DNA of 64,000 nucleotides. Source: an uncultured Solirubrobacterales bacterium. Its GTDB lineage: Bacteria > Actinomycetota > Thermoleophilia > Solirubrobacterales > JACPNS01. Position 1 is the stretch's first letter. Each line of letters opens with the position of its first letter. Under the pieces are notes generated by a model. That model was not told where the DNA came from. It did no database searches and saw only the letters and a list, made by a program, of their open reading frames with translations. The stretch covers positions 45,571 through 109,570 of the forward strand of contig CAKZMQ010000019.1 of assembly GCA_937128795.1 (NCBI GenBank), in the 5' to 3' direction. Shown in pieces: positions 13,321-60,200 of the stretch. A program made the position numbers and the translations under genes.

Positions 13321-13355
13321 ACCCAAAAACACGAAAACCCGGCGATCGCCGGGTT
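13321..13355 (-). terminator. Rho-independent terminator downstream of ahcY
   Basis: Perfect 20-nt palindrome AACCCGGCGATCGCCGGGTT (13336-13355). On the minus strand it is followed by TTTCGTGTTTTTGGGT. It lies 33 nt after the ahcY stop. Confidence 0.65.
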
Positions 13356-13387
13356 CTCGTTCAACTCCTATGTGCTGGATCGCTGGC

Positions 13388-14836
<1,449 letters not shown>

Positions 14837-20078: not shown

Positions 20079-22949
<2,871 letters not shown>

Positions 22950-26250: not shown

Positions 26251-27516
26251 TCAGGTTCCCTGATCCCATGAAGTTAGGTAGTTGCGCTGGGCCTCGGTCA
26301 ATTCATCGATGTTGACCTCCAGCGACTCGAGTTTGAGGCGAGCGATTTCGGTGTCGATTGCCGGCGGAACTTCATGCACGCGCTTTTCCAGCTGGGCGCC
26401 GTGCTTGACCAGGTGTTCGACGGCGAGCGCTTGGTTGGCGAAGCTCATGTCCATCACGGCGGCCGGATGGCCCTCGGCGGCAGAGAGGTTGACGAGGCGG
26501 CCGTCGGCCAATAGGTAGATGCGACGGCCGTCGCTGGTCGTGAATCGTTCAACGAGCGGCCGGACGATCGCGCGGTCGGTCGCGACTGCGGCCAGATCGT
26601 CTTTGTTTATTTCGACATCGAAGTGGCCGGCATTGCAGATGATCGTGCCATCTCCCATGGCGTCGAACATCTCACCGGCGATCGCGTCACGATTGCCGGT
26701 GACACTGACCATCACGTCGGCCTTGGCTGCGGCGGCCATCGCAGGCAGCACCTCGAATCCGTCCATCACGGCTTCGAGTGCGCGGAGCGGGTCGACCTCA
26801 CAAACAACAACATGCGCGCCCATGCCCTTCGCGCGCATCGCCACTCCCTTGCCGCACCAGCCATAGCCGAGTACCGCCACCACTCGACCGGCGATCAGCA
26901 CGTTGGTAGCGCGCAGGATGCCATCCATCGTCGATTGACCGGTGCCGTAGCGATTGTCGAATAGGTGTTTGGTCTCGGCTTCGTTGACGGCGATGATCGG
27001 GTACTCAAGATTGCCCTCTTGCTGAAGCGCCTTCAACCTGATGATCCCGGTCGTGGTCTCTTCGGTACCGCCGATTATGCCGTCGATCAGTTCGCGCCGG
27101 GCGCTGTGGACGGTGCTGATCACATCGGCGCCGTCGTCCATCGTGATCTGCGGCTGGATGTCGCAGACGGCGTCGATGTGTCGGTAGTAGGTTGCGGTGT
27201 CCTCGCCGTGGATCGCGTGGACTTCAGTGTCGTAACGCTCGGCCAGGGCTGCGGCGACTTCGTCCTGCGTCGACAGCGGATTGCTTGCGCAGAGCGCAAC
27301 CTCGGCACCGCCTGCAACCAGCGTTCGCATCAAGTTCGCGGTTTCGGTCGTCACGTGCAGGCAGGCGCCAACGCGTGTTCCCGCCAGCGGACGCTCCTTC
27401 GCGAAGCGTTCGCGAATGCGTGCGAGCACCGGCATTTCGTTGTCGGCCCAGTCGACGCGCAGAACACCGTCGTCGGCGAGCGCGGCGTCGGCGATGTCAC
27501 GCGGGGCCGGGGTCAT
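26251..27516 (-). CDS. ahcY: S-adenosyl-L-homocysteine hydrolase, short (421-aa) form: second paralog
   Basis: ..NEMPVL.., ACLHVTTETANLMRTL, NAD site GYGWCGKGVA, NAGHFDVEI. It lacks the ~40-aa insertion of the 482-aa copy. The start overlaps the upstream stop (ATGA). Confidence 0.9.
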   Translation of the reverse strand: MTPAPRDIADAALADDGVLRVDWADNEMPVLARIRERFAKERPLAGTRVGACLHVTTETANLMRTLVAGGAEVALCASNPLSTQDEVAAALAERYDTEVHAIHGEDTATYYRHIDAVCDIQPQITMDDGADVISTVHSARRELIDGIIGGTEETTTGIIRLKALQQEGNLEYPIIAVNEAETKHLFDNRYGTGQSTMDGILRATNVLIAGRVVAVLGYGWCGKGVAMRAKGMGAHVVVCEVDPLRALEAVMDGFEVLPAMAAAAKADVMVSVTGNRDAIAGEMFDAMGDGTIICNAGHFDVEINKDDLAAVATDRAIVRPLVERFTTSDGRRIYLLADGRLVNLSAAEGHPAAVMDMSFANQALAVEHLVKHGAQLEKRVHEVPPAIDTEIARLKLESLEVNIDELTEAQRNYLTSWDQGT

Positions 27517-41400: not shown

Positions 41401-41953
41401 GCACGCACTCCGCGGCGATCCAAGTAGTTGAGCAAGCTGGCCTTGCGGACATTCTCAAGCGAGGTGCCGGCAGGGCGCAGGCCTTTCATCCGCACCTCGC
41501 CACAACGCGTACGCGCTGACCGCTCGTCGCGGTCACGTTTGCTGAGGAATGCCCAACAGTCTGCATGGCTGCGCGCGGATGATCCATCGTTGTGGGGAAA
41601 GGTGTTCATGAGTGATGTACGGAACGCGTGCTGCGCCGGTCGAGTCCGTTTCAGTTCGTAGATCTCGCCGTGTGAAGCGACAGAACGTTGCGGGGGCTCA
41701 GTTGGCGACTCGGTAGGGCGGCTAGGCCACATGCCTCGTCGTGTTCCGTTGAGAAAGATACAACATCGCACAAAGTCTTCTGGTGCCTTTTGTGACTAGG
41801 TTTGATGCGGGTTTCCACCGGTTTGCGAACTTGAGCTGCGTCGCAAGCTCATGGAAAACTCGCAAATATCGATTGCTCGCCGTACCTAGGAAGTGGACGG
41901 GGCAGACTAGGCCTGACTTTCTAGACACCGATGCCCGCTGCCATAGAAGGTCG

Positions 41954-42547
41954 CTACCTGAGTGAGGCAGCGCCGGATTGCGGCCTAATCCCTTTGAATG
42001 CGGTTATCGAGGCATCGTCCTCCGGAAAGCTGGCTATCAGCGCGTCTGTGAGCACGTAAGTCGGGACCGGGGCGCTGACCGGGCGCTTAGTACCAACGAT
42101 TTTCCGCCAGTAAAGCGCCGGGGCGACATTGCCAATCACACCGACGAACCCAGCGTTCGGTTCCGACTCGTCGACGTGGTCACCACTAGACCAATCGCGC
42201 AGATCAAAAAATGGCAACACCGTCGCTCCAAACTTATTTGCAGCTTTTCGGTCGGGAAAAACGGCGAATTCAAAGTCCACTTCGGACCCGTACTTGTCAG
42301 CTGCCGTACCTGAAACAACTTTGGCACGACCGCCCCGAGCTAACCGCGTTCGATTCATCTCGAGCTCTAGACCGGCCTCCGAGGTGAACGATTTGAGTTC
42401 AGTCACAACTTGCTCGACCGAAACGACACTGTTGGATGAACCGGGGACTTCTAGCGGTTGAACTGTCCCGCAACCAGACGAGATGAGTGCGTAGGCAAGG
42501 AGCATCACAATCGCCGCTGTGGCGCCGATGCGTTCAATTCGATTCAT
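41954..42547 (-). CDS. Lipoprotein (hypothetical), third gene of the giant-protein module
   Basis: ATG 42547. MNRIERIGATAAIVMLLAYALISSGCG is a signal peptide with lipobox L-I-S-S-G-C. Lower-GC codons. 14-nt gap after the upstream stop. Confidence 0.65.
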   Translation of the reverse strand: MNRIERIGATAAIVMLLAYALISSGCGTVQPLEVPGSSNSVVSVEQVVTELKSFTSEAGLELEMNRTRLARGGRAKVVSGTAADKYGSEVDFEFAVFPDRKAANKFGATVLPFFDLRDWSSGDHVDESEPNAGFVGVIGNVAPALYWRKIVGTKRPVSAPVPTYVLTDALIASFPEDDASITAFKGIRPQSGAASLR

Positions 42548-42561
42548 GTCGCTACCGCCGC

Positions 42562-43134
42562 TCAATTCTGCGTCACCAATGAATCGATCCCTACTTGGCC
42601 GGCAACCGACGTGAGCAGGTCCGTTGCGAGCCTGATTCTATTTGCTGTGATCGTCTCGTACTGCTCGAGGTTTTCACCAAATGCTCTCTCGGCGTTTGGA
42701 TAGAACTCAAGATTTCGCACTGAGTCGCGGTACGCCAATTGAAGCGATGAGTACGGGACGAATGGCCTCCATTGATTGATGCTGCTATTGGCAGACGGCC
42801 GATCACGATCCCAGATCACTATGGCAAAATCCAGCGTGTTTTCAGGAGTCTCCTCCCCCCTCACGGCCGACCCCAAAATTACTCCCTCGAGAGGGAGCGA
42901 CGACGGTGGATCCATGAGGTAGGCGTGCACGCGAGCATTGGGCGTTTCTCGGAGCCCTTCGAACACTGTTTCGACCGTAAAGGGGGTCGACTCAGATCCA
43001 CGAGTGCTCACGTAGATGGCACCGAACGCGCAAACAAGAACTGTTGCGAACAATGCGGCAATATAGGCCTTCTTTTTGGAGGAGCGCATTGTGGCGGAAG
43101 CGTCATCGTCGATGCGTGAAAAAATCGATTTCAT
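42562..43134 (-). CDS. Signal-anchored exported protein (hypothetical), second gene of the giant-protein module
   Basis: ATG 43134 shares its A with the TAA stop of the giant gene (TAATG). KKKAYIAALFATVLVCAFGAIYV is a basic n-region plus TM. Lower GC. Confidence 0.6.
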   Translation of the reverse strand: MKSIFSRIDDDASATMRSSKKKAYIAALFATVLVCAFGAIYVSTRGSESTPFTVETVFEGLRETPNARVHAYLMDPPSSLPLEGVILGSAVRGEETPENTLDFAIVIWDRDRPSANSSINQWRPFVPYSSLQLAYRDSVRNLEFYPNAERAFGENLEQYETITANRIRLATDLLTSVAGQVGIDSLVTQN

Positions 43135-46100
43135 TAGGTACACCAATGCGCTGTGTACTCCCCCGCAATTGGAGCGCCCCTGAAGGTCCCTTCAGTATCG
43201 ACGTAGTCTCCGTTCGTACCTTTCCACCTGATTGTGGGCGTGATCTCATACTCGTAGTCAGTGGGGTACCTACAGGTCTGATTCGGATTGTTCAGCCAAA
43301 GCGTCCGGTTGAGCGTTGACGGAATAACCTCACTGGGCGCGGTGTTCTCGGGAACATTGAACGACCAGCTTGAAGACTCGGGGGGGAGCCCGAACAACGG
43401 GTCATCAAATTCATCTCCGCATGTGTTTGTGTCACAAATTGGGACCATTCTGCAGTTCGAAAGAACATCACCCACGGCGCCGAAACCGACGTATCGATCG
43501 CATACCTCGTACTCCAGCTTCATTTCGTATGCGGTGTCCTCGGGCATTGTGTACGAACCGAAATTAGTGGACGTGTCCACATGGAACGTATGCAGACCAC
43601 CTCCCGTTTCTCCCGAGCCCGCGACGGTGATCGCTGGATTCTCTTCAGCCGCAACGGCACCGTCAGTCTCCTCGCTCTCGGAATCCGACGAGTTGCCGCT
43701 TTGCTGAGCACTCTGTGTGATCGAAGATGAATTGAAACGCGTATTTACGACGCGATAGCGGTCAAACGTCCACGTGTTCGTTCCGTCGCCGTCCCAACCG
43801 GGTGTGTTCGGCGAATAGCCGTCATCCTCGCTTTTGTTCCATCGATCGAAGTATGATCTCCACGGGTAATCAGTTCGATCCTTGCTGTGCTGAGCGATTT
43901 TCGGAAGTCGCCTGCCGGAAATCGGATCGTCCGTTGTGGAGGTCACGAATGCGAGATGGTTGACGTTGGGGGGATTCTTGCCTGGGAGATAGTCTTGCCA
44001 ACGGCGTTTATCTGCCGCATCGATTGAAATGATGTCGCCAGGCCTTGTATTAATTTGTGTCAACTGCGATTTTCTAGGGCGATCCGCGTACTTTTCAATC
44101 AGTTCGCGTGACTCGAAGTATTCAATGAAGCGCGTCGCGCGCATCCAGGACGTCGTTCTCTCACGCACCTTGTTTGCACCCGGCCGTCCATCCTTGAGGA
44201 ACCAGAACGCGAAGTAGTTCCTGTTGTCCTCGTCGTCCGTGTCTGCCTTCGGCCATGTGTAGTAAAGCGTCCCGTCCCTTTTCCGTCGCGGGAGGCCCGT
44301 CCAGCGTTCGTGAGCGAATGAGACACCGCCGGCCCTCAGAATTTGGGACAGAAAGTTCGTGCAGTCGTTGTCACCTTCTTTTCCGTACAAGGAATTCGAG
44401 TAATCAAGCCCTTGCGCAGGAGCAATTTCAGGCGCGTCTCGATCGATCTGGTCCGCCTCTCGCACCTGATCGCCGGCTGAATAACCCCCGTACTCGAGCG
44501 CATAGTCCACGGCTTTGGCAACGTTAAACCGGCCGCAGTGTTTTCCACGAACGATTCTGTTACCTGGGCCTGCGCAATCCGCTAGGTCGCGTCCTCCGTA
44601 CTGTCCCGCCCAGGCGCTCGTAACTCGTCCTTCACGCACCCTAATCGTTTTAAAGTAATACTTCTTTCCATTGATAGGCGATCGCCACGCCGTCGGCATT
44701 GGATCCCTCGTGCCGGCCTCGGGAGCGTCACGGCCGTTGATCTTGTATGCATAAATCCTGTAGATTCCTGGATTCAACTCCATCAACACTTCGCCTCGTT
44801 TAATGCTGACCCCAGACGCTTTGTGGTGAAGCGTCCCCGATAACTCCCGGGACCTCAATGAGTTACACCGGTCACGTTGGCCCTCAATCTTCCTGCAGAC
44901 CTTCATCAGCGCACCAGGTACGCTTCGAACCGTTGCGGCATGGCCGAGCGCGTCGTCGAATGCCATATGAATGTACCCAGTGCTATGGGGGTCATACTCG
45001 ACCGTCTCAGAGAACGTGGCTACCGCCGACTCATTACCGACCTGATCAATAGACCGAAACTCGGCGTCGATGACATCACCGATGTCGACATTGTTGAACT
45101 GAATCATTGGATCATCCGTAACCGTCCATTCGCTCCAGCTCGAACCATTAAGCCGATAACGGATCAACGATGACTCGACGCCAGACCCTTGCGTCAAGTC
45201 ATCAATCGACGGGTCTTCGGGTTCGTCCCAGTCGAGCTCGGCAATCTTCGCGTCGCCGTTGTATGACACGTCGAATTCAGCGGGCGCTAGCGGCGCGGTT
45301 GTGTCAATTCGGATCGTCGCCAGAACTCGATTCGTCGCATTTCCGGCCCGATCCGACGCAGTACCGATTAGTCGCCACGCACCTTCGGCGAGGTTGTGAG
45401 TTTGTCCCGGAAATGACGCGAGAAACACATTTGAGCATCGCTGGTCATCGCAGTCGGAGTTAGTTTGGCTTTGGAGATCTTGAAGCGACGGGCCAGGGTC
45501 ATCGACTCGATCGGCTGTGATGGCAACCGACTTCACCCCCGAATCATCATCGGAGACCGTCAAATTGCTCGCAAGTAGGCTCAATGACTGCAAATACTCG
45601 CCGTCGAGCTTTGTCAATTCCGGCCCCGGGTCGGCGATATCTGGTGGTGATCCGGACACGATGCCGCCCGCGAAAGTTGACATAGACCGATTTCCCCGGC
45701 TATCGGACGCTCTAATTTCAACCGCGGCGGCGGTACCAGCACTGAGCAGGCCGTCTCCAATTTTTTTGGTTGGCTCCTCCGACGGCTGCCAATCCGACCA
45801 TCGGTCTTCGGAGGCAAAATCGCACTCCGTAGCAAAGTCGTCTACCGGAGCACTGCAAGCCCGGGTTTCGTATGAATCAAAGTCCTCAGCGTGGGTTGCA
45901 CTGTCGTCCCATTGAACTGTCAACTCACCTTCTCGATTCTCGAATGCATTCGCCCACAGTATTTGCGGCGGTGGTTCCGCATCTTGCGTCCAACTTGCCT
46001 GTGTCACCGCCGATTCGTTTCCAGCACGATCGACTGACTTAGCTTGAAACTCGTGTGCACCGCTGCTCAACCCTGAGTCCCGGAAATCTCCATCACATTC

Positions 46101-49100
46101 CGACCACGGACCGAAGTCGAGTTTGCACTTGGTGATGAACGAATCCGCAGGCGGCGTTAGTTCAATCTCGATCGAACTGCCCGCGACGTACTCAGGTATT
46201 TGCGAATCCAAGCTCGGCGCAGCCGGTGCAATCGTGTCGATGACAAATACCGAAGATGCCGGTGAAGAATCAACGTTACCCGCTATGTCTCTTGCACGAA
46301 CTTCAACACTGTGTTCACCATCGATCAAGCCCATAGCAGCGGTATCCATCGCGGATTCACAGTCTTCAAATTCGGTGTTGTCGACCGAGCATTCGAACTC
46401 GACTGGCTCGGAAGCCGAGAACGTGAACTGAGGCGAGACTGAGCTGGACACGTTCAGAGCCGGACCATCAACGATCCAAGTCTGCGGAGCCGTAGTGTCG
46501 GACACGAGTTCGCCAGCAGTGTCGACGATAAACCTTCGAGTTGCACTGCTTCCGACATTTCCAGCGGCGTCGATATACCGGATCGCGAACGTATGCGGAC
46601 CATCGTCGAGATCGACCATCGAGACGGGAGAGGCACAACTCGTGAACGGCGCGCTATCGATCGAGCAACTCGCGATGGCGTCGATCGGGGGGTCCTGAAA
46701 AGCGAACTCGATCGAGTCCTCAGTCAGCACTTGGTCATTGTCCGGAGTCACTGTCAATAACGGCGTCACCGGCGCAGTTCGATCGAGTTGGTACTCCAAA
46801 ACGTCGCTCGACGGACCAACCGCATCTCCAACGATGCTGCGAACACTGAAACCAACATTCCCGTCGTTCGCTGCGTGGGGCAAGTTGAATTTGTGGGGCG
46901 ATACGCACGGCTCCCACGGCCTCCCCTGCGCCTTGCACTCGAAACCGTCCGGCTGGTCGCCAAGCGATTCAAACCCAACTATTGGATTCGTTCCCCGATG
47001 TGGATTCGGGACCAATAGTTCTGACTGCACTGCTGGCGCGGGTGGCCCCGAAACCTCGGTATCAAACGAGATCTCAGCCGGATCGGAGTCAGTATTTCCC
47101 GCTCCATCAACTGCTCGAACTCTGAGGACATGAGGGCCATTTGCGAGCCTGGCGGTCTTGCCCCCCGCGGGACAGTGACTGAACGGCTCAGCGTCGACAG
47201 AGCATTCAAACCAAGAAGGTTCATTAGCCAAAGCTCGATATGGCAAACTTGGCTCGGTCAGGGTCGAGCCTTGGCTCGGCGTCACTTGCTCGTCGAACGA
47301 CGTTTCAGGTGGCACCGAATCAGATGAGGGCGGAGTGACTTCGACCTGAAGAACCAATGGCGTTGGATCCTCATTGCCGACCGCGTCGACAGCTTTCGTC
47401 TCAATCGAGTGAAGCCCAGCCGCGAGGTTGATCGATTGCCCGTCAGGACATGATCGAAATGGTCCGCCGTCCAGTCTGCATATAAAACTCACAGCCCATT
47501 CGGACGAACTCCAGCCAAAGCGTATGTTCTCTGAGTCGACTTGAATTACGGGTGCATGGATGTCCGAAAGGGCGTTGCTTACTGAATCAAGCATCGTTTC
47601 AGGCGCGGTCGCGTCCACAATAAAGTTTCTAGTTACAGGTGTCGGGTCCGTTCCGCCAGCGTTATTGCGCGCACGGACGGAGACCGAGTAGTTCCCGTCT
47701 GGAACTGAACTAAGACTGAGCTCGCGGTCGCAAATCTCGAATTCGCCACCATTGAAAGAGCATTCAAACCCGGCGTTTGCCTCCCCATCAAACTCGAACA
47801 GAACTGGAAGCGTCACGACTTCATTCTCGCCTGGCCCTGCAACGATCCGAGTAAACAGCGGCGGCGATGTCATGAGCACTACTGCAAGTTCGTCGCCGAT
47901 CAGGTCGTGATTGCCAGCTTCATCAACAGATCTTACGCGGATAGTGTTTGTGCCCTCTATCAGGCTCGCGAGCCGCTGACCAGGCGCGCATCGAATAAAG
48001 GGGGCCAAGTTGACGGAGCACTCAAAGCGGGCAGGAGACTCCGAAGACGAATACTCGATCCGAATGGATGCAAGCGACGAGTACACCAATTCCTGATCAG
48101 GAAGCGTGATCGCCGTGGTCGGTGGAACCGTATCGACAATGAAACTGACTGAAGCTGGCGTGGGGTCTGCGTTCGCATCCTCATCGACCGCGTAGGCCGC
48201 GAACGTATTGGCACCCTCTTCCAAGTTCGACAACTGCATCTCCGCCGAACATTCGCTGAACTCCGCCGCATTTATCGAGCAGTGGAATGTTGAAGTTTCG
48301 GAAGCTTCCAGAGTCAACGCGAGTTCATTTTCACGAATCCGCTCGCCTGGAGGCAGACCATGAATCGTCGTTTCCGGCGGTAGGACGTCAACGTTCGGTG
48401 ACGCCCCCGAAATGACATTGAATTCAACGCGGACCCATCTCGAAACGTTTCCTGCGGCGTCGATGGCCCGAACGGCAAGCGAATGGTTACCAGCCGTGAG
48501 ATCAGAAAAGGTTTCGTCCTGTGAGCAAGATGCGACGAATCCATCTAGTGAGCATTCAAACCAAGAACTCGACTCGTTTGAGCCCAATGTGAGTTGAAGC
48601 TCCCCAGACATCAGTTGACTGTTCGTGTCGAGGTTTGTTTGGATCGTTGGCGACGGGGCCTCGGTGTCCAAGATGTAGGAGATTTCAAGGGGCGACGGAT
48701 CTACCATCTCGCCATTCCGTGCCCTGGCAAAGAACGTGTACGTTCCATCAGTCGATTCGGCTCCAATCATCCATGTGAAAGGCGCAGCGCAGGGTGCCCA
48801 AGACTCTGCATCTTCACTGCATTCAAAACCAGCGCTCGAATCATTCGATGTCAGCTCGACATCCAATCGCCGCGAACTGCCTGCGGCGGGTATTGGCTGA
48901 ACGAGGGAAGTTGTCAGATCTTCCTCACCTTCCTCGAGTGAGAAACTGAGCGTCGTCGTCGGTCCAGGGACTCCTAGGTATGACATGGCGCGTGCACTGA
49001 TGGTGTGTTCGCCGGCGGCAAGCGATTCGACGGGATACGACATTTCGCAGTCAGCGAATGGTTCGTCGTCGATTCGACACTCCACTGCCGAGCGTTCCGG

Positions 49101-51353
49101 GACAGTGTGAAAGTCAAAAGTCATGGCCTGAGGAATTTCCTCTGACGAAGTTTGCTGGGAGATTTCGACCGTAGGAGCCACACCGATGACAAAAAACTCG
49201 AATTCAAATGACGTAGAAGAATTGAAGGCCGCGTCAATTGCCACGACCCGAAGCGCGTGAGCCCCGTCCTCAAGCATTGGGGGAGCGAGCGGCGACTCGC
49301 ATGGCAGGTACTCCCCATCGTCAATACTGCAAATAAACTCGGCAGGCTCATCCGCGCTGAACTGAATCGAAACGTCCTCGGGTTCGAAGTATCTCTGCGA
49401 GCGTTCGCTCTTTTCGAACGTGACCATCGGAGGTCCGGTCTCAATGAGAATCGTGAACAGCGCAGGTGTAGCGTCCTTTGCGCCGTTTTCCGAAACAGCC
49501 CTAGCACGGACCTCGTGCTCACCGTCAACGAGCGGTGGAGTGAAAGAGCTCGCACAAATCTCAAATGGAGCGGCGTCCACCGAACACTCGAAGGTTGCTG
49601 ACGGATCCGAAGACGTAATGATAAGTTGCGGCGTGCGGTCATCCGATGGGGATGACGGACCCGCGATTGAGGTATCGGGCCCCTCGTCAACAACAAACTC
49701 CGCAACCGCCGGCGTCGGGTCATGCCCAAACTGATTGAGCGAGCGAACAGAGATCGAATGCACTCCGTCGGCGAGTGCGCTCGGCACCGTCCAAGGCGAC
49801 TCGCAGGCCGCGAAGGTGCCGTCGTCGATCTTGCATTCAAATGAGTCGGCCTGACCGGTCGGGTCTGAGTCGAACTCGATCGTCGGCTGGTTGTCGTTGG
49901 TCTCTGCTGGCGGCGCAGAGGTGATCTGCGTGTCGACAGGTGAGCCTGAGTTGCAGCCCATCAGGCTCAGTGACTCGGTTCGCGTTGCCGTCGTCCAGTT
50001 CGCGTATGTGGCGACCAGCATGCGAACGTCGTTGGGAGAGACGCAGCCCATTTCGGACGGGGAAACGATCCGCAGGATGTGCGGCGAGAGCGGTGTGCCG
50101 CTGGTGTTGACGCGGCCCTCCTGCCCCAAGTCGAGCTCCAACTTCGTGGCCGGGATCGACGGCAGCTGGAAGGTCATCAACGTCTCGACTTCGCAGTACT
50201 CCCAGAAGCTGTCGCAGCTTGGGTCGATCTGCGGGAAACTGAGCCAACCTGCAGCCCTGATCGATCTGTTCGACTCGCCGATGTCGATCGCAAAGACCGG
50301 GATCGGTGACATATTCACGACCCAGAGCTTGCCGTCGATCGGCTCGCGGAACATTGGCGTCGTCAGGCGGACCGTTCCGACCTGGGCCTGCGCGGGACAG
50401 GAGTCTGGGTTGAAGCGGCTGAGCGTCGTAACCGAGCTGGTGGGACACATGTCGGCCGTCGCCCCGTAAGCGACGGTGTTCAGCCAGATCGCGGTGCCAA
50501 GCTTCAGCACGATCGCTCGAAGCGCGCTGCTCTCTGGAGCAACGGTCGCTGTGAACCGGGCTCCTGTCGGTGCGTTGGCCGTCGGGTTGGTGAGCGACGC
50601 AGAGAATGTGGGGTCGATCGTCTGCGGAGCACAATCGGTCACCGGATACTGAGCAATGGCGGTCGCCGAGGAGAGGTCATCGGCCACCAAGGTTGCCGAA
50701 GCGGTGTCGGCGACGGCCGGACAAGCGCTCGGGTTGGTGATCAACGGGAAGCTGCCGCCAAGCGCGCCGGTGAACGACATCGAGAGCTGCGTCAGCTGGA
50801 TCGAGACACCTGTCGATGAGGTCAACGGGAGCTCGGGAAAGGTGATCCGCTGGTGTTGGTCAGAGGTCGGCGCGCCGGACACGGTGAATGCGCCGTTGAG
50901 GTTCAGGTCAAGGCCTGCTTGTGCGATGAACGAACCGTCGCCGCCGGGAAGTTCGACGTTCAGCGAGACACCAGCCACAAGGTTGGACGACGGCGCCTCG
51001 GTGAGGAAGAGTTCACCGGCTGCCGGTGAGCCCGAGGCCAGCGTGACGGAGGCCGAGCCGATCAAGGTGCTCGGGTCGCAGTCGCCTGCTTCGGCATCTG
51101 CAATGGGGCACGGCGTTTCGATAGCGCCAGGAGCGATCCGCAGTCCTGCCGGGAGCTTCAGAGTCACATCACTGGGCTTGGGCGTGCCGACGAAGTCGGT
51201 GGTCAGCGTGAGGTCTGGGTGGGCGTTGACTGCTGTGGTTGAGGGCGTGAGAGTGAGGGTGGCGCCGAACTGCGCTGACGCAGAAGCTGCGAATCCGAAA
51301 CCTGCGACCGCCGCCAACGTAAGAATTAGCGCAAAGCGTGCCAACCGATACAT
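43134..51353 (-). CDS. Giant (2739-aa) secreted multidomain protein: signal peptide, ~470-aa N-domain, 15 two-Cys Ig-like modules, FN3-like modules, papain-like Amidase_6-type domain, orphan C-terminal domain
   Basis: Signal peptide MYRLARFALILTLAAVAGFGFAASASAQ. 15 repeats of F-x-C-x9-C...G-x-H-x-[FVIL]-x-V-R-A-x-D-x-A-G-N...D-T-x-P-P between aa ~473 and 1797 (nt 45963-49937). FN3-like AELDWDEPED..IRYRLNGSSWSEW. Amidase signature KAVDYALEYGG..GDNDCTNFLSQILRAGG..TSWMRATRF..GDIISID..VNHLAFVTS (nt ~43854-44528). Confidence 0.85.
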   Translation of the reverse strand: MYRLARFALILTLAAVAGFGFAASASAQFGATLTLTPSTTAVNAHPDLTLTTDFVGTPKPSDVTLKLPAGLRIAPGAIETPCPIADAEAGDCDPSTLIGSASVTLASGSPAAGELFLTEAPSSNLVAGVSLNVELPGGDGSFIAQAGLDLNLNGAFTVSGAPTSDQHQRITFPELPLTSSTGVSIQLTQLSMSFTGALGGSFPLITNPSACPAVADTASATLVADDLSSATAIAQYPVTDCAPQTIDPTFSASLTNPTANAPTGARFTATVAPESSALRAIVLKLGTAIWLNTVAYGATADMCPTSSVTTLSRFNPDSCPAQAQVGTVRLTTPMFREPIDGKLWVVNMSPIPVFAIDIGESNRSIRAAGWLSFPQIDPSCDSFWEYCEVETLMTFQLPSIPATKLELDLGQEGRVNTSGTPLSPHILRIVSPSEMGCVSPNDVRMLVATYANWTTATRTESLSLMGCNSGSPVDTQITSAPPAETNDNQPTIEFDSDPTGQADSFECKIDDGTFAACESPWTVPSALADGVHSISVRSLNQFGHDPTPAVAEFVVDEGPDTSIAGPSSPSDDRTPQLIITSSDPSATFECSVDAAPFEICASSFTPPLVDGEHEVRARAVSENGAKDATPALFTILIETGPPMVTFEKSERSQRYFEPEDVSIQFSADEPAEFICSIDDGEYLPCESPLAPPMLEDGAHALRVVAIDAAFNSSTSFEFEFFVIGVAPTVEISQQTSSEEIPQAMTFDFHTVPERSAVECRIDDEPFADCEMSYPVESLAAGEHTISARAMSYLGVPGPTTTLSFSLEEGEEDLTTSLVQPIPAAGSSRRLDVELTSNDSSAGFECSEDAESWAPCAAPFTWMIGAESTDGTYTFFARARNGEMVDPSPLEISYILDTEAPSPTIQTNLDTNSQLMSGELQLTLGSNESSSWFECSLDGFVASCSQDETFSDLTAGNHSLAVRAIDAAGNVSRWVRVEFNVISGASPNVDVLPPETTIHGLPPGERIRENELALTLEASETSTFHCSINAAEFSECSAEMQLSNLEEGANTFAAYAVDEDANADPTPASVSFIVDTVPPTTAITLPDQELVYSSLASIRIEYSSSESPARFECSVNLAPFIRCAPGQRLASLIEGTNTIRVRSVDEAGNHDLIGDELAVVLMTSPPLFTRIVAGPGENEVVTLPVLFEFDGEANAGFECSFNGGEFEICDRELSLSSVPDGNYSVSVRARNNAGGTDPTPVTRNFIVDATAPETMLDSVSNALSDIHAPVIQVDSENIRFGWSSSEWAVSFICRLDGGPFRSCPDGQSINLAAGLHSIETKAVDAVGNEDPTPLVLQVEVTPPSSDSVPPETSFDEQVTPSQGSTLTEPSLPYRALANEPSWFECSVDAEPFSHCPAGGKTARLANGPHVLRVRAVDGAGNTDSDPAEISFDTEVSGPPAPAVQSELLVPNPHRGTNPIVGFESLGDQPDGFECKAQGRPWEPCVSPHKFNLPHAANDGNVGFSVRSIVGDAVGPSSDVLEYQLDRTAPVTPLLTVTPDNDQVLTEDSIEFAFQDPPIDAIASCSIDSAPFTSCASPVSMVDLDDGPHTFAIRYIDAAGNVGSSATRRFIVDTAGELVSDTTAPQTWIVDGPALNVSSSVSPQFTFSASEPVEFECSVDNTEFEDCESAMDTAAMGLIDGEHSVEVRARDIAGNVDSSPASSVFVIDTIAPAAPSLDSQIPEYVAGSSIEIELTPPADSFITKCKLDFGPWSECDGDFRDSGLSSGAHEFQAKSVDRAGNESAVTQASWTQDAEPPPQILWANAFENREGELTVQWDDSATHAEDFDSYETRACSAPVDDFATECDFASEDRWSDWQPSEEPTKKIGDGLLSAGTAAAVEIRASDSRGNRSMSTFAGGIVSGSPPDIADPGPELTKLDGEYLQSLSLLASNLTVSDDDSGVKSVAITADRVDDPGPSLQDLQSQTNSDCDDQRCSNVFLASFPGQTHNLAEGAWRLIGTASDRAGNATNRVLATIRIDTTAPLAPAEFDVSYNGDAKIAELDWDEPEDPSIDDLTQGSGVESSLIRYRLNGSSWSEWTVTDDPMIQFNNVDIGDVIDAEFRSIDQVGNESAVATFSETVEYDPHSTGYIHMAFDDALGHAATVRSVPGALMKVCRKIEGQRDRCNSLRSRELSGTLHHKASGVSIKRGEVLMELNPGIYRIYAYKINGRDAPEAGTRDPMPTAWRSPINGKKYYFKTIRVREGRVTSAWAGQYGGRDLADCAGPGNRIVRGKHCGRFNVAKAVDYALEYGGYSAGDQVREADQIDRDAPEIAPAQGLDYSNSLYGKEGDNDCTNFLSQILRAGGVSFAHERWTGLPRRKRDGTLYYTWPKADTDDEDNRNYFAFWFLKDGRPGANKVRERTTSWMRATRFIEYFESRELIEKYADRPRKSQLTQINTRPGDIISIDAADKRRWQDYLPGKNPPNVNHLAFVTSTTDDPISGRRLPKIAQHSKDRTDYPWRSYFDRWNKSEDDGYSPNTPGWDGDGTNTWTFDRYRVVNTRFNSSSITQSAQQSGNSSDSESEETDGAVAAEENPAITVAGSGETGGGLHTFHVDTSTNFGSYTMPEDTAYEMKLEYEVCDRYVGFGAVGDVLSNCRMVPICDTNTCGDEFDDPLFGLPPESSSWSFNVPENTAPSEVIPSTLNRTLWLNNPNQTCRYPTDYEYEITPTIRWKGTNGDYVDTEGTFRGAPIAGEYTAHWCT

Positions 51354-51498
51354 AAATTTTCTTCCCCATTATTCATACTGAATTTGACAACCATTAAGGC
51401 AGCCTTAACACGATCTGATTTATAGTACCCGAATCGGATGGCGCTGTTTGGTGTATTTCTGACGTCGTGGTTGACCCCGCTGCTGTAGCCTCCCCACC

Positions 51499-52885: not shown

Positions 52886-54052
52886 TCATTCGCGTTCGAT
52901 CGCCGGAAACTCCCCCGTTGCCAGCTGCTCGGCGACGTCGGCATCCACCTGATCCTCGGTGATGGCCCCCTTGCGGCGCAGCCGTCGTCCGCTGAAGCGA
53001 CGCAGCTTGAGGATCTCAAGCACGACGACGAGATAGAAACTCGCCGCGAGCACCACCAGTCCGAGGCCCACCAGTACCAGCGTCCAACCGGTGTCGAGGT
53101 TGCCATGGCCGTCTGAATACGGGATGAACCGCAGCGCGAGGGCGAGGGCCGCCAGACAGAGCGTCCACGCGTAGAGATAGAGCACGGTTCTTCGCTGCGA
53201 GAAACCGATGTTCACGAAGCGGTGATGAAAATGCCAACGGTCTGCGGCATAGATCGGTTTGCCGTACTTCAGTCGCTTGGCCACCACGAAACCGGTGTCG
53301 AGGATCGGCACCGCGAGAATCACCAGCGGGAAAAACAGCGCGACGGCGGCGGCCGTCTTCAGCACGCCCTGAATCGCGATACAGGCGAGCAGATAGCCGA
53401 GCAGGTTCGATCCAGCGTCGCCCATGAAGATCGTCGCCGGATGGAAGTTGTGAAAGAGAAACCCGAGCGACGCCCCGGCTGTGCATGCGGCGAGGATGCC
53501 CGCCGAGTAGCGGTTGAGCGACAGCGCGATCGCGGCAAACGTTGCAGCACCGATGAAACATACGCCGGCCGCCAGGCCGTCGGCACCGTCGGTGAGATTC
53601 ACAACGTTGATGACCGCGACAATGCCGAGCATCGTCAGCGGTTCTGCCAGCTCACCGAGGTCGACTGGAGCGATGAACGGCAGTGTGAAGTTCTGAACGA
53701 CAACGCCGCTCATCACCGGCACGGCCGATCCGAGGAACTGCCCGACCAGTTTGGCGAACGGCGAAAGATTGAAGATGTCGTCCATCGCACCAACGAAAAC
53801 GATGATCAGGGCGCCGAGAATGATCCCTTCGGTCTCGCCCGTATCCGGCATGAAAAAGAGACTCGACACCAGCAGCCCGGCAAGAATTGCGAGCCCGCCG
53901 AGGCTCGGCATGTCTTGGTCGTGCAACGAGCGGTCTTCGACTTCCGCAACCGCCCCCACGCGGACGGCGAATCGAGCCGCCAGCGGCGTCAGGGCAAACG
54001 AGACGGCTGTGGCTACGGCGAAGCCAGCAAGTGCTTGAAGTTCAGATGACAA
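52886..54052 (-). CDS. wecA: Polyprenyl-phosphate GlcNAc-1-phosphate transferase (WecA/Rfe, MraY-family GT4)
   Basis: GAMDDIFNLSP, NVVNLTDGADGLA, IFMGDAGSNLLGY motifs. The stop is firm. The start is uncertain: the maximal ORF reaches 54214, but that ATG lies 6 nt from the divergent gene's ATG. TTG 54052, just before the first TM, is my preferred guess. Confidence 0.8.
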   Translation of the reverse strand: MSSELQALAGFAVATAVSFALTPLAARFAVRVGAVAEVEDRSLHDQDMPSLGGLAILAGLLVSSLFFMPDTGETEGIILGALIIVFVGAMDDIFNLSPFAKLVGQFLGSAVPVMSGVVVQNFTLPFIAPVDLGELAEPLTMLGIVAVINVVNLTDGADGLAAGVCFIGAATFAAIALSLNRYSAGILAACTAGASLGFLFHNFHPATIFMGDAGSNLLGYLLACIAIQGVLKTAAAVALFFPLVILAVPILDTGFVVAKRLKYGKPIYAADRWHFHHRFVNIGFSQRRTVLYLYAWTLCLAALALALRFIPYSDGHGNLDTGWTLVLVGLGLVVLAASFYLVVVLEILKLRRFSGRRLRRKGAITEDQVDADVAEQLATGEFPAIERE

Positions 54053-54219
54053 GGGCGCTCGCGGCAAATCATGGCGCAAAGCTCGGAGAGCGTCTGCGGA
54101 TAGCCCAGAAAAAGCGCAACCCTGCCAACATTTACCTGTTTTTGAGTGGCAACTCGGCGTCGGTTCCCTTACCTTTATTGTGCCTTGCCTTGAAGGTGGC
54201 TTGTTTACCGGCATTCAGG

Positions 54220-57200
54220 ATGAATTCCGCGATTTCCCCTACGACAAAACTCGGGCTCATGAGGAGCGTCTTCTTGACCGCGATCTTCGCGGCGCTGTTG
54301 CTTGCCGCGACGGCACCGGCCGCGATGGCCGATCCGCCGGCGGTTTCGGTCACTTCGCCGACCGCATTTGCGTCGATCAACAGCGCTGATGTGACGGTCG
54401 CGTTCGACGCTTCCGGCGACGCGCCATTGACCATCGAATGCGCACTCGACGGCGGTACACCGGTTGCCTGTGCGGACGAGATCGCCTACACCGGGTTGAG
54501 CGAGGGCACGCACACTGTGGAAGTTTCGGCCACCGACGAGCTGCTGAACTCGGCGATGGCGTCCGTGACGTTCACCGTGGATTTGACTCCGCCGACGATC
54601 GCACTGAGTTCTCCGGTCGCCGGCGCGACGAACGACGACACGCCGACGGTCGCCGGAACAACCGACGTGCCTGACGGCAGTTCTGTGGAAGTCACCGAGG
54701 GCGCGAACCCGGTCTGCACCGCGACGGTCGCCTCCGGCGCCTTCACGTGCGACGCCGCTGCGCTCGGCGAGGGCACGTTCACGCTGTTGGCAACTGTCAG
54801 TGACGCCGCTACCAACTCCGCGTCGGACACCGTGACGATCGACGTCGACCTGACCGCTCCGGTGGTCGACTTCGACACGCCTGCAGGCGGCTCTTGGAGC
54901 CAGAGCGACTCAGTCGCCACGACCTTCAGCGTGATCGAAGTCAACGTCGCCAGCGTCGAATGCCGGGCCGACTCCGATGCTGCGGTGCCGTGTGGTTCGG
55001 AGACCGACTTCACGTTCGCTGGGCTCGCCGATGGCGCTCGGGTGTTGAAGGTGCTTGTGATCGACGCGGCCGGCAACTCCGACGAGGCATCGATCACGGT
55101 GAACGTCGACACGATCGATCCTGCGTTGACGGTGACCGCGCCGACGGGCGGCGAGTGGATCACGTCGGGCACAGTCGATCTTGAGTTTTCTGCGACCGAC
55201 GCGAACGCGCTCGAGTTCAGCTGTCAGCTCGACGCCGAGAGCCCGGTCGCCTGCACCAGCGCCACATCGCACAGCTTCACCGACGTTGCCGACGGCAACG
55301 ACCGCACGGTGACCGTCACTGCAACTGACGCCTCTGGCCGCAGCGACACCGAGACGATCGCCTTCCAGGTGGACAAGACCGCGCCGGTGGTCAGCTTCAC
55401 TTCTCCGGCAGACAACTCGTGGAGCCAGAGCAACTCTGTCGACACAACTTTCACGGTCACCGAGGCGAACGTCGCCAGCGTCACATGCCAGGTTGATTCG
55501 GACGCCGCAGTGCCGTGTGGGTCGGAGACCGGCTTCACGTTCGCTGGACTCGACGAAGGTGCTCGGGTCTTGAAGGTCTTGGTGACCGACCAGGCCGGCA
55601 ACTTCGATGAGGCGTCGCTCACCGTGAACGTCGACACGATCGACCCGGCTCTGACGATCACCTCTCCGCTTGCCGGTGCCTGGCTTGATTCGGGCAGCGT
55701 CGACGTGAGTTTCTCCGCAACCGACGCGAACTCGCTCAGTTTGACTTGCGAGATCACCGGCCAGAGCGCGGTGCCGTGCGACTCCGGTGCTGACCACACT
55801 TTCAGCGGCGTGGCTGACGGCTCGCGGACGATCAGCGTCACGGCGACCGATCCTTCGGGTCGCAGCGTGACTGAGAGCGTCGTCGTGAACGTCGACCAGA
55901 CCGATCCAGTCGTTGCGTTCACCTCGCCGAGCGACAACTCCTGGAGCCAGAGCGATTCCGTTGCCACGACTTTCACCGTAACCGAAGCCAACGTCGCCAG
56001 CGTGACCTGCCAAGTCGATTCAGACGCGGCAGTGCCGTGTGGGTCGGAGACCGGCTTCACGTTCGCCGGGCTCGCCGACGGCGCACGTGAATTGACGGTG
56101 CTCGTATCCGACCAGGCGGGCAACAGCGCAGAGGCAACGCGCATCGTGAACGTCGACACGATCGACCCATTGCTTTCGATCAGCTCGCCGCTCGCAGGTG
56201 CCTGGATCGACTCGAACAGCGTGAGTGTGAGCTTTTCAGCCACCGACGCCAACTCGCTGACTTTGACCTGCGAGATCAGCGGGCAGACTGCAGTTGCATG
56301 TGATTCCGGCTCTTCGCACACCATCACCGGCGTGACCGACGGTTCGCGAACGATCACCGTGACGGCAACTGATGTCTCGGGTCGCAGCGTGACTGAGAGC
56401 GTCGTCGTGAACGTCGACCAGACCGATCCGGTTGTGGCGTTCGCCTCGCCCGCCGACAACTCGTGGAGCCAGAGTTCGTCGGTCGCGACAACATTCGGCG
56501 TGACCGAGGCCAATGTCGCCAGCGTCGAATGCCAGGTCGATTCGGCGTCGCCGGTTTCCTGCGACTCGCAAACAGGATTCACTTTCGCAGGTCTTGCCGA
56601 GGGTGATCGGGTCCTGAAGGTCTTGGTCACCGACCTGGCTGGCAACTCAGCCGAGGCAACACGGACGGTGAGAATCGACACGATCGATCCTGCGTTGTCG
56701 ATCAGCTCCCCGCTTGCCGGCGCCTGGCTTGACTCGGGCAGCGTGCCAGTGAGTTTCTCTGCCAGCGACACGAACCCGCTGACATTGGCCTGCGAGATCA
56801 CCGACCAGAGCGCGGTGCCATGCGAGGCCGGATCGTCACACACTTTCCTCGGCGTGACTGACGGTGCGCGAACGATCACCGTGACTGCGACCGATCCTTC
56901 GGGTCGCAGCGTCACCGAGAACGTCGTAGTTAACGTCGACCAGACTGATCCGATCGTCGCCTTCGATTCGCCGGCCCACAACTCCTGGAGCCAGAGCGAT
57001 TCGGTCGCCGCGACTTTCACGGTGGATGAGGCCAACGTCGCAAGTGTCGAATGCCAGGTCGATTCTGATGGCGCTGTGCCATGTGGCTCTGAGACCGAAT
57101 TCACGTTCAGCGGCCTCGCGGACGGCGCTCGGGTGTTGAAGGTGCTTGTGATCGACGCGGCCGGCAACTCCGACGAGGCATCGATCACGGTGAACGTCGA

Positions 57201-60200
57201 CACGATCGATCCTGCGTTGACGGTGACCGCGCCGACGGGCGGCGAGTGGATCACGTCGGGCACAGTCGATCTTGAGTTTTCTGCGACCGACGCGAACGCG
57301 CTCGAGTTCAGCTGTCAGCTCGACGCCGAGAGCCCGGTCGCCTGCACCAGCGCCACATCGCACAGCTTCACCGACGTTGCCGACGGCAACGACCGCACGG
57401 TGACCGTCACTGCAACTGACGCCTCTGGCCGCAGCGACACCGAGACGATCGCCTTCCAGGTGGACAAGACCGCGCCGGTGGTCAGCTTCACTTCTCCGGC
57501 AGACAACTCGTGGAGCCAGAGCAACTCTGTCGACACAACTTTCACGGTCACCGAGGCGAACGTCGCCAGCGTCACATGCCAGGTTGATTCGGACGCCGCA
57601 GTGCCGTGTGGGTCGGAGACCGGCTTCACGTTCGCTGGACTCGACGAAGGTGCTCGGGTCTTGAAGGTCTTGGTGACCGACCAGGCCGGCAACTTCGATG
57701 AGGCGTCGCTCACCGTGAACGTCGACACGATCGACCCGGCTCTGACGATCACCTCTCCGCTTGCCGGTGCCTGGCTTGATTCGGGCAGCGTCGACGTGAG
57801 TTTCTCCGCAACCGACGCGAACTCGCTCAGTTTGACTTGCGAGATCACCGGCCAGAGCGCGGTGCCGTGCGACTCCGGTGCTGACCACACTTTCAGCGGC
57901 GTGGCTGACGGCTCGCGGACGATCAGCGTCACGGCGACCGACCCTTCCGGTCGCAGCGTGACCGAAAACGTCGCCGTGAACGTCGACCAGACCGATCCGG
58001 TTGTTGCGTTCACCTCGCCCGCCAACAACTCCTGGAGCCAGAGCGCCTCCGTCGATTCGACCTTCACTGTCACCGAAGCCAACGTCGCCAGTGTGGAGTG
58101 CCAGGTCGACTCGGACGCCGCTGAGCCGTGTGGTTCAGAAACTGAATTCACGTTCAACGTCCTCGCCGACGGCGCGCGCGTGTTGAAGGTGCTCGTGACC
58201 GACCAGGCCGGCAACTCGGCTGAAGTGTCGCTGACGGTGAACGTTGACACGATCGACCCAGTTCTGTCAATCAGCTCGCCGGCCGCCGGAGCCTGGCTTG
58301 ATTCGAGCAGCGTCGGCGTGAGCTTCTCCGCAACCGACGCGAACTCGCTCAGTTTGACTTGCCAGATCTCCGGCCAGAGTGCGCTGCCGTGCGACTCCGG
58401 TTCTGGCCACACCTTCACCGGTGTCGGCGATGGCTCGCGGACGATCACCGTGACGGCGACCGATCCTTCTGGGCGCAGCGTGACCGACAGCGTCGCGGTG
58501 AGCGTCGACAACTCGGAGCCAGAGGTTGCGTTTACCTCGCCCGCCAACAATTCATGGAGCCAGAGCGCATCCGTCACCACGACTTTCGCCGTGACCGAGG
58601 TCAACGTCTCCAGCGTCACCTGCCAAGTGGATTCGGCGACACCGATCGCATGCGGTTCGCAGACTGGATTCACGTTTACCGATCTGGCTGACGGATCGCG
58701 AACCTTGAAGGTTTCGGTGACTGACGAAGCCGGCAACTCCACGCAGGCAACGCGGACGGTGCGAGTCGACACGATTGATCCAACTCTCTCGATCACCAGT
58801 CCGACTGATGGTTTCTTCGCCGACGACACGACCACGGCGACTGCGTTCACCGCAGCGGACACAAACGGAGTCACCACGTCTTGCAAGCTCGACGATGGCG
58901 CGTTCGCCGCATGCACGAGTCCTGCCAGCCAAACCGGTCTGTCGCAAGGCAATCACACGGTGACTGTCCGCGCCACCGATCCATCGGGCCGGTCCATTGA
59001 GGACGACGTCACCTTCACCGTGGACACAGTCGACCCAGCAGTCGCGATTTCGTACCCACACGACGACGACCATGAATACGTCAACAACGAAACGAACCCC
59101 GACGCCCTATACAGCGCGACCGACGTGAACATTGATCAGATCGTTTGCAAGATCAACGACGTGGAAGTCGACGACAACTGCAGCCCCTCGAGTTTTGACA
59201 TCTCGACCTTGCCCGATGGTCAGCACACGTTCAGGGTCGAAGCCACCGACCGCGCCGGAAATCACTTCGGCGTGGAGTCCACCTTCGTTGTCGACACGAT
59301 CGACCCGACGGTTGCGATCAGCTCACCGGTCGCGGGCAGCTTCATCGCCCAGAAGAGCATCAGCAAAGCTTTCACCACCGACGACACGCATCCGGACTCG
59401 GTGGACTGTCGCCTCGATGGCGGTGCATACGAACCGTGCACGAATCCGCGTACATATGGCGGCCTCGGCGAAGGCGCGCACACTGCGTTCGTTCGTGCCC
59501 GCGACCTCGCCGGAAACGAGACGGTCCGAAGCGTTCAATTCGTGATCGACACGATCAAACCGGCGGTATCGATCGGTTCGCCGGCGAATGGTCAGACTTT
59601 GTTCGGCTCGTCGGTTGGCGTGACCTTCGGAGCGGCCGACGCAACTGCGGTGCGCTACGAATGCAGCGCAAACGACGGCGCGTTCGTGCCCTGCGTAAGC
59701 CCCTTCTCGATCAGCGGGCTCGACGACGGCGTGCACACATCGACAGTTCGCGCGATCGACCAAGCCGGCAACAGCAGCGCAAACGGCGTGCAGTTCGCGG
59801 TCGATTTGACGTCACCGGACACCGCCGAAAAGTTTGGCGTCGCCAAACCGAAGGGCCGGACTCCGCGCAAGCTGACCAGGCGGAGCAAGTTGATCTTCCG
59901 CGACGAGTTCAGTGGCAATGCGCTGAACCGTCGAAAGTGGTCGAATCTACGCGGGACCCTGAAGTTTCCGTACACATCCGCATATAACGCCAAAAAGGAA
60001 TCTGCGAGCTACGCACGCGAAAACGCGAACGTGCAGAACGGCAAAGCGGTGCTCACGCTCAAGCGCAAGCCGTCGAGCACGGACCGGAGAAATCCCTACA
60101 CCTCCGGCATGATCCACAGCGGCAATCACTTCAGCTTCCGCCACGGATACGTGGAGGCACGCGTGAAGGTTCCGTCGTGCAGTGGTTGCTGGCCTGCATT

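Follow-up and report, generated by a model that had tools for sequence, protein, structure and literature searches.

What does a giant secreted protein with a predicted wall-cleaving tip do when it is encoded directly ahead of two small exported proteins? The question is raised by a three-gene module in a 64,000-nucleotide stretch of DNA (hereafter the window; contig CAKZMQ010000019.1, positions 45,571 to 109,570, assembly GCA_937128795.1) from an uncultured, soil-type Solirubrobacterales bacterium, a monoderm actinobacterium. The module lies on the minus strand and consists of a giant gene of 2,739 codons and two short genes, which we call small1 and small2. An earlier reading of the sequence (the original prediction) had proposed a polymorphic toxin with immunity genes downstream, or else a wall-remodelling system. 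Our analysis tentatively favors, at slightly less than an even chance, a mobile, stalked peptidoglycan hydrolase that is exported by the Sec pathway and paired with a cognate immunity or inhibitor protein, itself exported, and that would serve to lyse neighboring bacteria.

The enzyme is the best-defined part of the giant protein. Amino acids (aa) 2277-2501 (window positions 43851-44525, minus strand) match the Pfam family Amidase_6 (PF12671) with an E value of 5.8e-15 and 56.2 bits against a cut-off of 23.2. This family has been assigned to the NlpC/P60-CHAP-amidase group among papain-like enzymes and linked to Tae3, a type VI secretion system (T6SS) amidase (PMC10318531). An exhaustive phmmer search with aa 2130-2739 against 1.84 billion representative proteins returned three non-self matches: P0004 (1025 aa) and P0006 (1000 aa), which were matched at their C-termini over the amidase region, and P0005 (200 aa), matched only over the domain that follows it. 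P0004 and P0006 likewise carry PF12671, and in all three Amidase_6 proteins the residues Cys2331 (in the motif D-C-T-N-F, NDCTNF in the giant protein, codon 44361-44363), His2466 and His2489 are invariant. These data support the originally predicted papain-like amidase as a domain of the papain-like or NlpC/P60 group, a predicted peptidoglycan hydrolase.

The likeness to P0004 and P0006 extends well beyond the catalytic domain. A module of ~780 aa in the giant protein (aa 1765-2541; 43731-46061, minus strand), made up of FN3/Ig-like (immunoglobulin-like) domains, then a beta-rich region and finally the amidase, is collinear with the C-terminal two thirds of both relatives (blastp: P0004 residues 343-1024, 28% identity, E 6e-63; P0006 residues 334-999, E 3e-52). 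The N-terminal thirds of P0004 and P0006 are unrelated to the N-terminus of the giant protein, and the C-terminal ~780 aa are the conserved part. Both relatives end in ..RFN[DE]*, precisely where an acidic linker begins in the giant protein.

This branch of Amidase_6 is extremely rare, comprising three proteins (the giant protein, P0004 and P0006) among the 1.84e9 representatives. The C-terminal 480 aa of the giant protein gave no match in a word-indexed search of 5.8 billion clusters, and its C-terminal cassette had no relative in a scan of genome contigs. When metagenomes were scanned with the amidase alignment, only four distant, generic Amidase_6 genes in unrelated contexts were recovered, which either showed 25% identity over ~200 aa or aligned along no more than ~40 aa and were uninformative. 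For comparison of the surrounding region we scanned for AtpB, one genome per species, and obtained 73 related loci, nearly all from Thermoleophilia. No orthologue of the giant protein with the same N-terminus and another C-terminus was found by word-based search, by exhaustive search or in these 73 loci, and searches of plasmids, phages and viral contigs, together with the 73 loci, yielded nothing similar to the module. An origin as a prophage endolysin or from a plasmid was dropped after the plasmid, phage and viral-contig searches came back empty. Searches of PDB sequences with the amidase gave no match at E≤1 (profile) and none beyond noise at E≤10 (single sequence).

Directly downstream of the giant gene lies small1 (42562-43134, minus strand), whose 190-aa product is exported and carries a signal anchor at its positively charged N-terminus, with one transmembrane helix. 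The two genes have one base in common, the giant TAA stop and the small1 ATG forming TAATG at 43132-43136. The second small gene, small2 (41954-42547, minus strand), starts with an ATG at 42547, 14 nt past the small1 stop, and encodes a 197-aa lipoprotein (LISSGC|G). The shared base, the signal-anchored 190-aa protein and the lipoprotein gene 14 nt farther on had been described in the original prediction and reappeared in our reading of the sequence. All three proteins of the module thus carry export signals. Neither small1 nor small2 has a Pfam match (E≤0.1) or an NCBIfam match, and a word-limited search of 5.8 billion clusters returned for each only the query itself.

A gene of the same kind follows the amidase in both relatives. 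In locus L080 a 160-aa lipoprotein gene (LTSGC; Lp80) overlaps the P0006 stop by 8 nt, and in locus L077 the plus-strand ORF (open reading frame) 13071-13634 encodes a 187-aa lipoprotein (LAGC; Lp77) whose ATG overlaps the P0004 stop. The overlap reads TTCAATGACTGA in L077 and TTCAATGAGTAG in L080, following the pattern ATGA(C/G)T(G/A)(A/G). Lp77 and Lp80, neither of which has a Pfam match at E≤10, are homologous to each other (E 9e-8), and small1 is homologous to Lp77 (pairwise E 5e-6), with a core common to small1 and the lipoproteins of the form ..G.A......F..VIWD..R.PS......W.P. A hidden Markov model (HMM) of mature Lp77 and Lp80 gave mature small1 a score of 8.6 bits, which none of 3000 shuffled sequences reached. 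The amidase gene and the exported-partner gene therefore overlap in three of three known loci, with homologous partners, and the association of an exported protein with this C-terminal enzyme, which the original prediction had raised as a matter for neighborhood comparison, holds in each of them. Because the lipoproteins that overlap the P0004 and P0006 stops are homologous to small1, the amidase and its translationally coupled exported partner form, as judged from these alignments and gene overlaps, a conserved cassette, and the partners one new family.

The public gene call in L077 (also in L078 and L079) runs antisense, as an ORF at 13143-13814 on the minus strand, and the sequence of Lp77 is absent from a collection of 15 billion proteins. 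Because of such antisense miscalls, the partner family is under-counted.

The standing of small2 is less clear. Direct BLASTP between small1 and small2 was not significant, and in the profile test against the small1 family 7-49 of 3000 shuffles reached the score of small2. The idea that small1 and small2 are clear paralogues was given up on these grounds, with the profile test weakly suggestive; small2 is possibly a very divergent paralogue of small1.

Both P0004 and P0006, which lack a long stalk and the domain that ends the giant protein, keep the partner gene, and the partner therefore goes with the amidase module rather than with that domain. The latter, an orphan domain of 154 aa with six Cys (aa 2586-2739; 43137-43598, minus strand), stands behind a Ser/Asp/Glu-rich linker (aa 2542-2585; 43599-43730, minus strand) that begins where the two relatives stop. 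The linker and the unannotated domain had both been noticed in the original prediction, where the domain was also put forward as a possible effector. This second claim gained no support. The orphan domain has no Pfam or NCBIfam match (none in Pfam even at E≤10) and no catalytic motif. Its modeled fold in AlphaFold2 (AF2), with local pLDDT (predicted local distance difference test) values of 50-70 and thus low confidence, is all-beta, and Foldseek paired the model with generic beta-sandwiches only, such as ApaG and arrestin. We consider it more likely to be a wall-targeting module than a second toxin, because its position after a linker matches that of the wall-binding module in endolysins and bacteriolysins and because the partner-bearing relatives lack it.

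The one relative of the orphan domain, P0005, matches it with a phmmer E value of 8e-6 (full library) and a blastp E value of 4e-13 over giant aa 2573-2716. P0005 is a stand-alone 200-aa ORF without a visible signal peptide (L075, 161-763; also L076), on contigs of ~1.2 kb (1185 and 1157 bp) from GCA_040960765.1 and GCA_040961225.1, assemblies that also hold P0004; it may represent a gene in its own right or a remnant.

The occurrence of the orphan domain as a separate ORF is one of the observations that would suit a two-headed effector, in which the orphan domain is a second toxin, small2 its immunity protein and small1 the cover for the amidase. Set beside P0004 and P0006, the orphan domain and small2 both count as extras, and the order of the genes mirrors the order of the domains. 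Set against this are the plain, low-confidence beta-sandwich model, the lack of a catalytic motif or family match, the absence of any small2-like gene after P0005 on its ~1.2-kb contigs, and the weak resemblance of small2 to the small1 family. We consider a two-headed effector very unlikely.

The favored reading, a stalked hydrolase with an exported inhibitor, can be set out as a series of steps. The amidase would cut peptidoglycan outside the producer, and the terminal beta domain would most likely direct it to the wall, as in the layout of catalytic domain, linker and binding domain known from endolysins and bacteriolysins. Translational coupling would ensure that small1 is made in fixed proportion to the enzyme. 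On the outer face of the producer's membrane, small1 would bind and block the enzyme near the cell's own wall and so act as its immunity protein or inhibitor, while small2 could be either a second copy that has diverged or a protein specific to the added orphan domain. The cassette would move horizontally, and its product would most likely be a stalked, bacteriolysin-like effector that lyses neighboring cells.

Several known systems resemble parts of this scheme. As in Tae3-Tai3 (PDB 4HZ9) and TseH-TsiH, a papain-like amidase is encoded next to an exported protein that would meet it in the wall compartment; TseH of Vibrio has an HHpred match to amidase_6 (PMC4453574), and Tai3 is an exported blocker of the Tae3 active site that belongs to the IseA family, IseA itself acting on LytE (PMC12700454). 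Unlike Tae3-Tai3, the module is exported by Sec and not by a T6SS, its enzyme ends a 2,700-aa protein, and it has no sequence match to solved structures. The host is a monoderm actinobacterium and export relies on a Sec signal, which argues that no T6SS is involved; none of the window genes scanned has a T6SS-related Pfam match. Export by way of a Sec signal had been expected in the original prediction and stands; its statement that no Sec accessory gene is visible does not, for a housekeeping SecA is encoded at 20079-22949.

MliC and PliC are lysozyme-inhibitor lipoproteins. Like them, and like IseA in the IseA-LytE pair (PMC12700454), small1 is an exported or lipid-anchored candidate blocker of a wall hydrolase that would act outside the membrane. 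In contrast to IseA, MliC and PliC, it is translationally coupled to the enzyme gene, and no sequence likeness or reliable fold likeness to them was found.

The genes of bacteriolysins (class III bacteriocins) are accessory and sporadically distributed, as the module is here, and the classic form of bacteriolysin immunity is modification of the cross-bridge by FemABX-type enzymes. No FemABX-like gene is present in the inserted segment that carries the module. With lysostaphin, zoocin A, enterolysin A and the endolysins the giant protein shares a catalytic domain, a linker and a candidate wall-targeting C-terminal domain, and the module is Sec-exported; Amidase_5 with ZoocinA_TRD is an example of the bacteriolysin type of domain combination (PMC10318531). 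The giant protein differs from bacteriolysins in being ten times larger and in having a stalk of Ig-like repeats and a coupled exported partner, and the module has no phage or plasmid relatives.

The likeness to polymorphic toxins of monoderms such as WapA/Rhs and LXG proteins, on which the original prediction was built, holds in part. The giant protein is secreted, with a Sec signal and a long repetitive region ahead of a C-terminal enzyme, as expected of such toxins, and a small, conserved, coupled gene for an exported protein lies directly downstream. A compositional break inside the giant gene (see below) is a footprint of the type expected when the 3' end of such a gene is replaced. Other hallmarks of the class are missing: no pre-toxin, demarcation or trafficking domain (RHS/YD, LXG, PT-HINT, PT-TG, VENN) was matched in Pfam or NCBIfam, there is no array of orphan toxin-tip/immunity cassettes downstream, and no part of the module has a second copy in the window. 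In polymorphic toxins the C-terminal domain varies among orthologues with a common N-terminal region and co-varies with the gene downstream; here the three Amidase_6 proteins have the C-terminal module in common and differ in their N-termini, and no orthologue turned up. Unlike a polymorphic toxin, the module would have an extracellular target, the wall, so that no translocation step is required.

To understand how the enzyme might be displayed, we examined the remainder of the giant protein (43134-51353, minus strand). The ORF, its canonical signal peptide and its repetitive stalk are all as first described. The protein opens with a canonical Sec signal peptide, MYRLARFALILTLAAVAGFGFAASASA|Q (…AASASA|Q; aa 1-27, ASA|Q; 51273-51353, minus strand), which is its sole hydrophobic segment; no sortase motif or C-terminal anchor was found. 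The signal peptide is followed by an N-terminal domain of unassigned family (aa 28-470; 49944-51272, minus strand), for which Pfam gave no match at E≤10 and neither the window nor the 73 related loci contain a paralogue. The stalk (aa 476-1850; 45804-49928, minus strand) consists of 15-16 Ig-like repeats of ~85 aa with a Cys pair in each; sixteen such pairs (C-x8-11-C) are spaced at ~85 aa between aa 507 and 1844. The repeats match Pfam Big_13 (1.3e-36) and the NCBIfam 'OmpL47-type beta-barrel domain' (4e-48), and the stalk is very acidic, with a net charge of about -168. The Big_13 and OmpL47 surface proteins of Leptospira are alike in the fold of these repeats; the N-terminal, amidase and orphan domains of the giant protein are unrelated to them.

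Resemblance of the repeats to surface proteins such as OmpL47 and to Ca-stabilized adhesins, together with the absence of an anchor in the giant protein and the membrane tethers of both partners, would also fit a surface fiber or adhesin. Here small1 (transmembrane) and small2 (lipid-anchored) would hold the giant protein through its C-terminal domains, and the amidase fold would serve for binding or be of secondary importance. The catalytic Cys and both His, however, are strictly conserved in three of three relatives, and the ~1000-aa relatives keep the partner gene in the absence of a long stalk or an orphan domain. An adhesin is decidedly unlikely on this evidence. A different use of the same stalk is a weapon of contact range in monoderm Actinomycetota that depends on Sec export only: an acidic stalk, tens of nm long and held on the producer's surface by the N-terminal domain, would present the amidase and its targeting domain to a neighbor, the new partner family, membrane- or lipid-anchored and translationally coupled to the enzyme, would confer immunity, and tips would be swapped within the repeats. 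Acquisition of a new tip by recombination within the repeats would explain the compositional break in the giant gene. We regard this contact-range weapon as unlikely.

On how the module came to be in this genome, comparison with relatives was informative. The closest of the 73 related loci (96% AtpB identity) belongs to a sister Solirubrobacterales metagenome-assembled genome (MAG), L002. By blastn, L002 position 4799 corresponds to window position 51484 and L002 position 4856 to 41804, with collinear flanks that are 87-93% identical; 56 bp in the sister MAG take the place of 9,679 bp here. The spacing between the flanking genes, one of the Phage_holin_4_2 family and one atpI-like, is 363-475 bp in L002, L004, L005, L006 and L009 as compared with 10.1 kb in this genome, and the short spacing in these five relatives indicates that the empty state is ancestral. 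The strain-specific segment (islet) of 9.68 kb at 41805-51483 contains the giant gene, small1 and small2 and no other gene, with 150 bp between small2 and the end of the insert, after which comes atpI. The original prediction had the three genes right; as bounds of the unit its 41954-51353 was slightly too narrow, the segment that differs from the relatives being 41805-51483.

The composition of the islet deviates as well. Its GC content is 0.566, against 0.621 for the rest of the window. Host genes have a GC at third codon positions (GC3) of 0.72-0.86, whereas values of 0.59-0.61 apply to small1, to small2 and to the greater part of the giant gene. The original description of a low-GC module therefore applies to the small genes and to most of the giant gene and not to the first ~529 codons of the latter, where GC3 is 0.78, a host-like value that extends over the signal peptide, the N-terminal domain and the first repeat. 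In the remaining ~2,200 codons it is 0.59. The change point was placed by maximum likelihood at codon ~529, in the first repeat (49764-49768, ~49766; minus strand), with a log-likelihood ratio of 34 that none of 200 permutations reached. Because of this sharp break the giant gene looks chimeric, with the joint within its first repeat. Presence or absence between close relatives, combined with deviant composition, is the pattern that defines a horizontally acquired islet, and the module looks acquired, an accessory element of foreign origin.

The site itself is variable, because another relative holds a different insert there: L003, a further Thermoleophilia MAG, carries ~3 kb (6441-9480) that encode a two-component system (LuxR-type response regulator with histidine kinase) and a membrane protein. 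The interval between the holin-family and atpI-like genes thus appears to be a hotspot for accessory genes. An imperfect similarity of ~25 bp between the junctions was considered as an attachment (att) site or target duplication and judged unconvincing, and there is no clean target-site duplication. In the relative L077, codon composition is also deviant, more mildly, and a tRNA-Ala and an IS3-family transposase (8425-9752) lie directly upstream of P0004. In L080, at ~4080-4120 and ~230 nt downstream of the lipoprotein gene, a sequence that looks like a tRNA 3' half (…GGTTCGATCCCGGCTAGCTCCA, minus strand) was noticed by eye only; ARAGORN reported no complete tRNA at this position, and the fragment may be a remnant of an att site.

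These observations bear on the possibility that the module is a self-directed autolysin for wall remodeling, with small1 and small2 as dedicated exported regulators that restrain or position the enzyme in the way that IseA acts with LytE-type endopeptidases. In B. subtilis, Amidase_6 proteins are listed with the candidate wall hydrolases of the cell itself (PMC10653849), IseA shows that endogenous NlpC/P60 enzymes can have exported inhibitors (PMC12700454), and coupled genes for enzyme and partner fit an autolysin equally well. A module that is almost unique, compositionally foreign and missing from a close sister genome and from relatives at the same site is nevertheless ill suited to core growth, and trimming of the producer's own wall sits poorly with a stalk of ~1,400 aa that would keep the enzyme at a great distance from the membrane. 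An autolysin therefore strikes us as unlikely. The accessory distribution, rarity and foreign composition of the module and the mobile context of its relatives point, in our view, to an antagonistic or ecological role rather than to housekeeping.

A second giant secreted protein encoded in the window provides a natural comparison. It occupies ~54220-60576 (plus strand, ~2,100 aa), shares the Cys-pair type of Ig-like repeat (Big_13, Glucodextran_B) with the amidase giant and ends in a GH16 glucanase domain; its GC3 is host-like (0.78), it is present in L002, and no small gene lies downstream. The long ORF (53887-60576, 2229 aa) starts from an upstream TTG and overlaps the GT4 gene, so that the true start is probably a Met before the signal peptide at ~54.2 kb. 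This conserved neighbor indicates that the lineage routinely puts hydrolases at the ends of stalks. That the GH16-tipped giant has no partner gene fits the expectation that a partner is needed only where the enzyme can attack the producer's own wall.

The same neighbor lends weight to a nutritional purpose, in which the amidase would be an extracellular foraging enzyme on a stalk that digests peptidoglycan debris or dead cells, with the small proteins merely shielding the producer. A further GH16 gene and two secreted trypsin-like proteases in the window are in keeping with such a lifestyle. Conservation in the sister genome, however, sets the GH16 giant apart from the amidase giant, which is a sporadic insert, and foraging departs from the favored reading in ecological purpose only, the mechanism being common to both. 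We give it a small chance.

Several observations weigh against lysis of neighbors by a stalked hydrolase with a cognate inhibitor. The cassette is known from only three loci, two of them on short contigs. No likeness of small1 to IseA, Tai3 or any Pfam or NCBIfam family, and no likeness of the amidase to Tae3, was detectable by sequence. The Amidase_6 proteins YhbB and YjcM of B. subtilis are uncharacterized candidate housekeeping wall hydrolases and not toxins (PMC10653849). Mobility of the islet finds no direct mark in the window: there is no integrase or transposase inside the insert, no tRNA in the window and no convincing repeat at the ends. Finally, AF2 runs on the amidase plus orphan region and on small1, made with tiny alignments, gave pLDDT values of 45 and 51, respectively, which are unreliable and speak neither for nor against an inhibitor fold or a wall-binding fold. 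The small1 model consists of a helix and a three-stranded core (core pLDDT ~70), and Foldseek found nothing for it at E<0.4. With pLDDT this low, and with generic beta-sandwich matches or noise as the outcome, AF2 and Foldseek output was not used as functional evidence.

We regard the conserved enzyme/partner cassette and the clean insertion-deletion difference as solid; the biology is what we infer from them. The logic of a wall hydrolase with an adjacent protective protein is already known; the partner family is new, and it and the orphan domain are unannotated. If the favored reading is right, a very rare Amidase_6 branch of wall hydrolases has a new family of exported partners, candidate immunity proteins or inhibitors, and a member of Thermoleophilia, a barely studied and mostly uncultured class, would practice interbacterial antagonism or wall attack by Sec export and a giant stalk alone. 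With its sister MAG this genome forms a clean natural pair, one with the islet and one without it, in which the contribution of such islets can be studied, and the enzyme/partner pair is small enough for direct in vitro work.

The surroundings of the islet can be described briefly. The gene order is glyA, the GH16-tipped giant gene, a GT4/WecA-type transferase gene, a GH16 gene, the Phage_holin_4_2-family gene, the module, the atpI-like gene and atpBEFHAGDC, with genes for SecA, prfA, nadA and sugar-nucleotide functions farther out in the window. A functional link of the module to the adjacent holin-family and GH16 genes was rejected, since relatives without the module also have both genes conserved beside atpI. 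Upstream of the giant gene, the divergent intergenic region of 145 bp (51354-51498) is markedly AT-rich (…GGTACTATAAATCAG…TTGTCAAATTCAGTATGAATAATGGGGAAG…) and is part of the insert rather than of the conserved flank. A sigma-70 scan of these 145 bp found no consensus promoter, and nothing rose above background when the region was scanned for promoters, terminators, Rfam families and tRNAs.

Elsewhere in the window, the two trypsin-family secreted proteases, each of ~500 aa, are encoded in tandem at 10163-13242 (minus strand), and two S-adenosylhomocysteine-hydrolase paralogues lie ~12 kb apart (13388-14836 and 26251-27516, minus strand). Two adjacent plus-strand ORFs, 899-4201 (1100 aa) and 4335-7472 (1045 aa), have a lowish GC3 of 0.66-0.68. 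The latter has no Pfam match; the former has weak Big_13/Big_3_2 matches and an FN3-like stretch resembling giant aa ~1927-2123 (E 2e-6). Both may encode further surface or secreted proteins.

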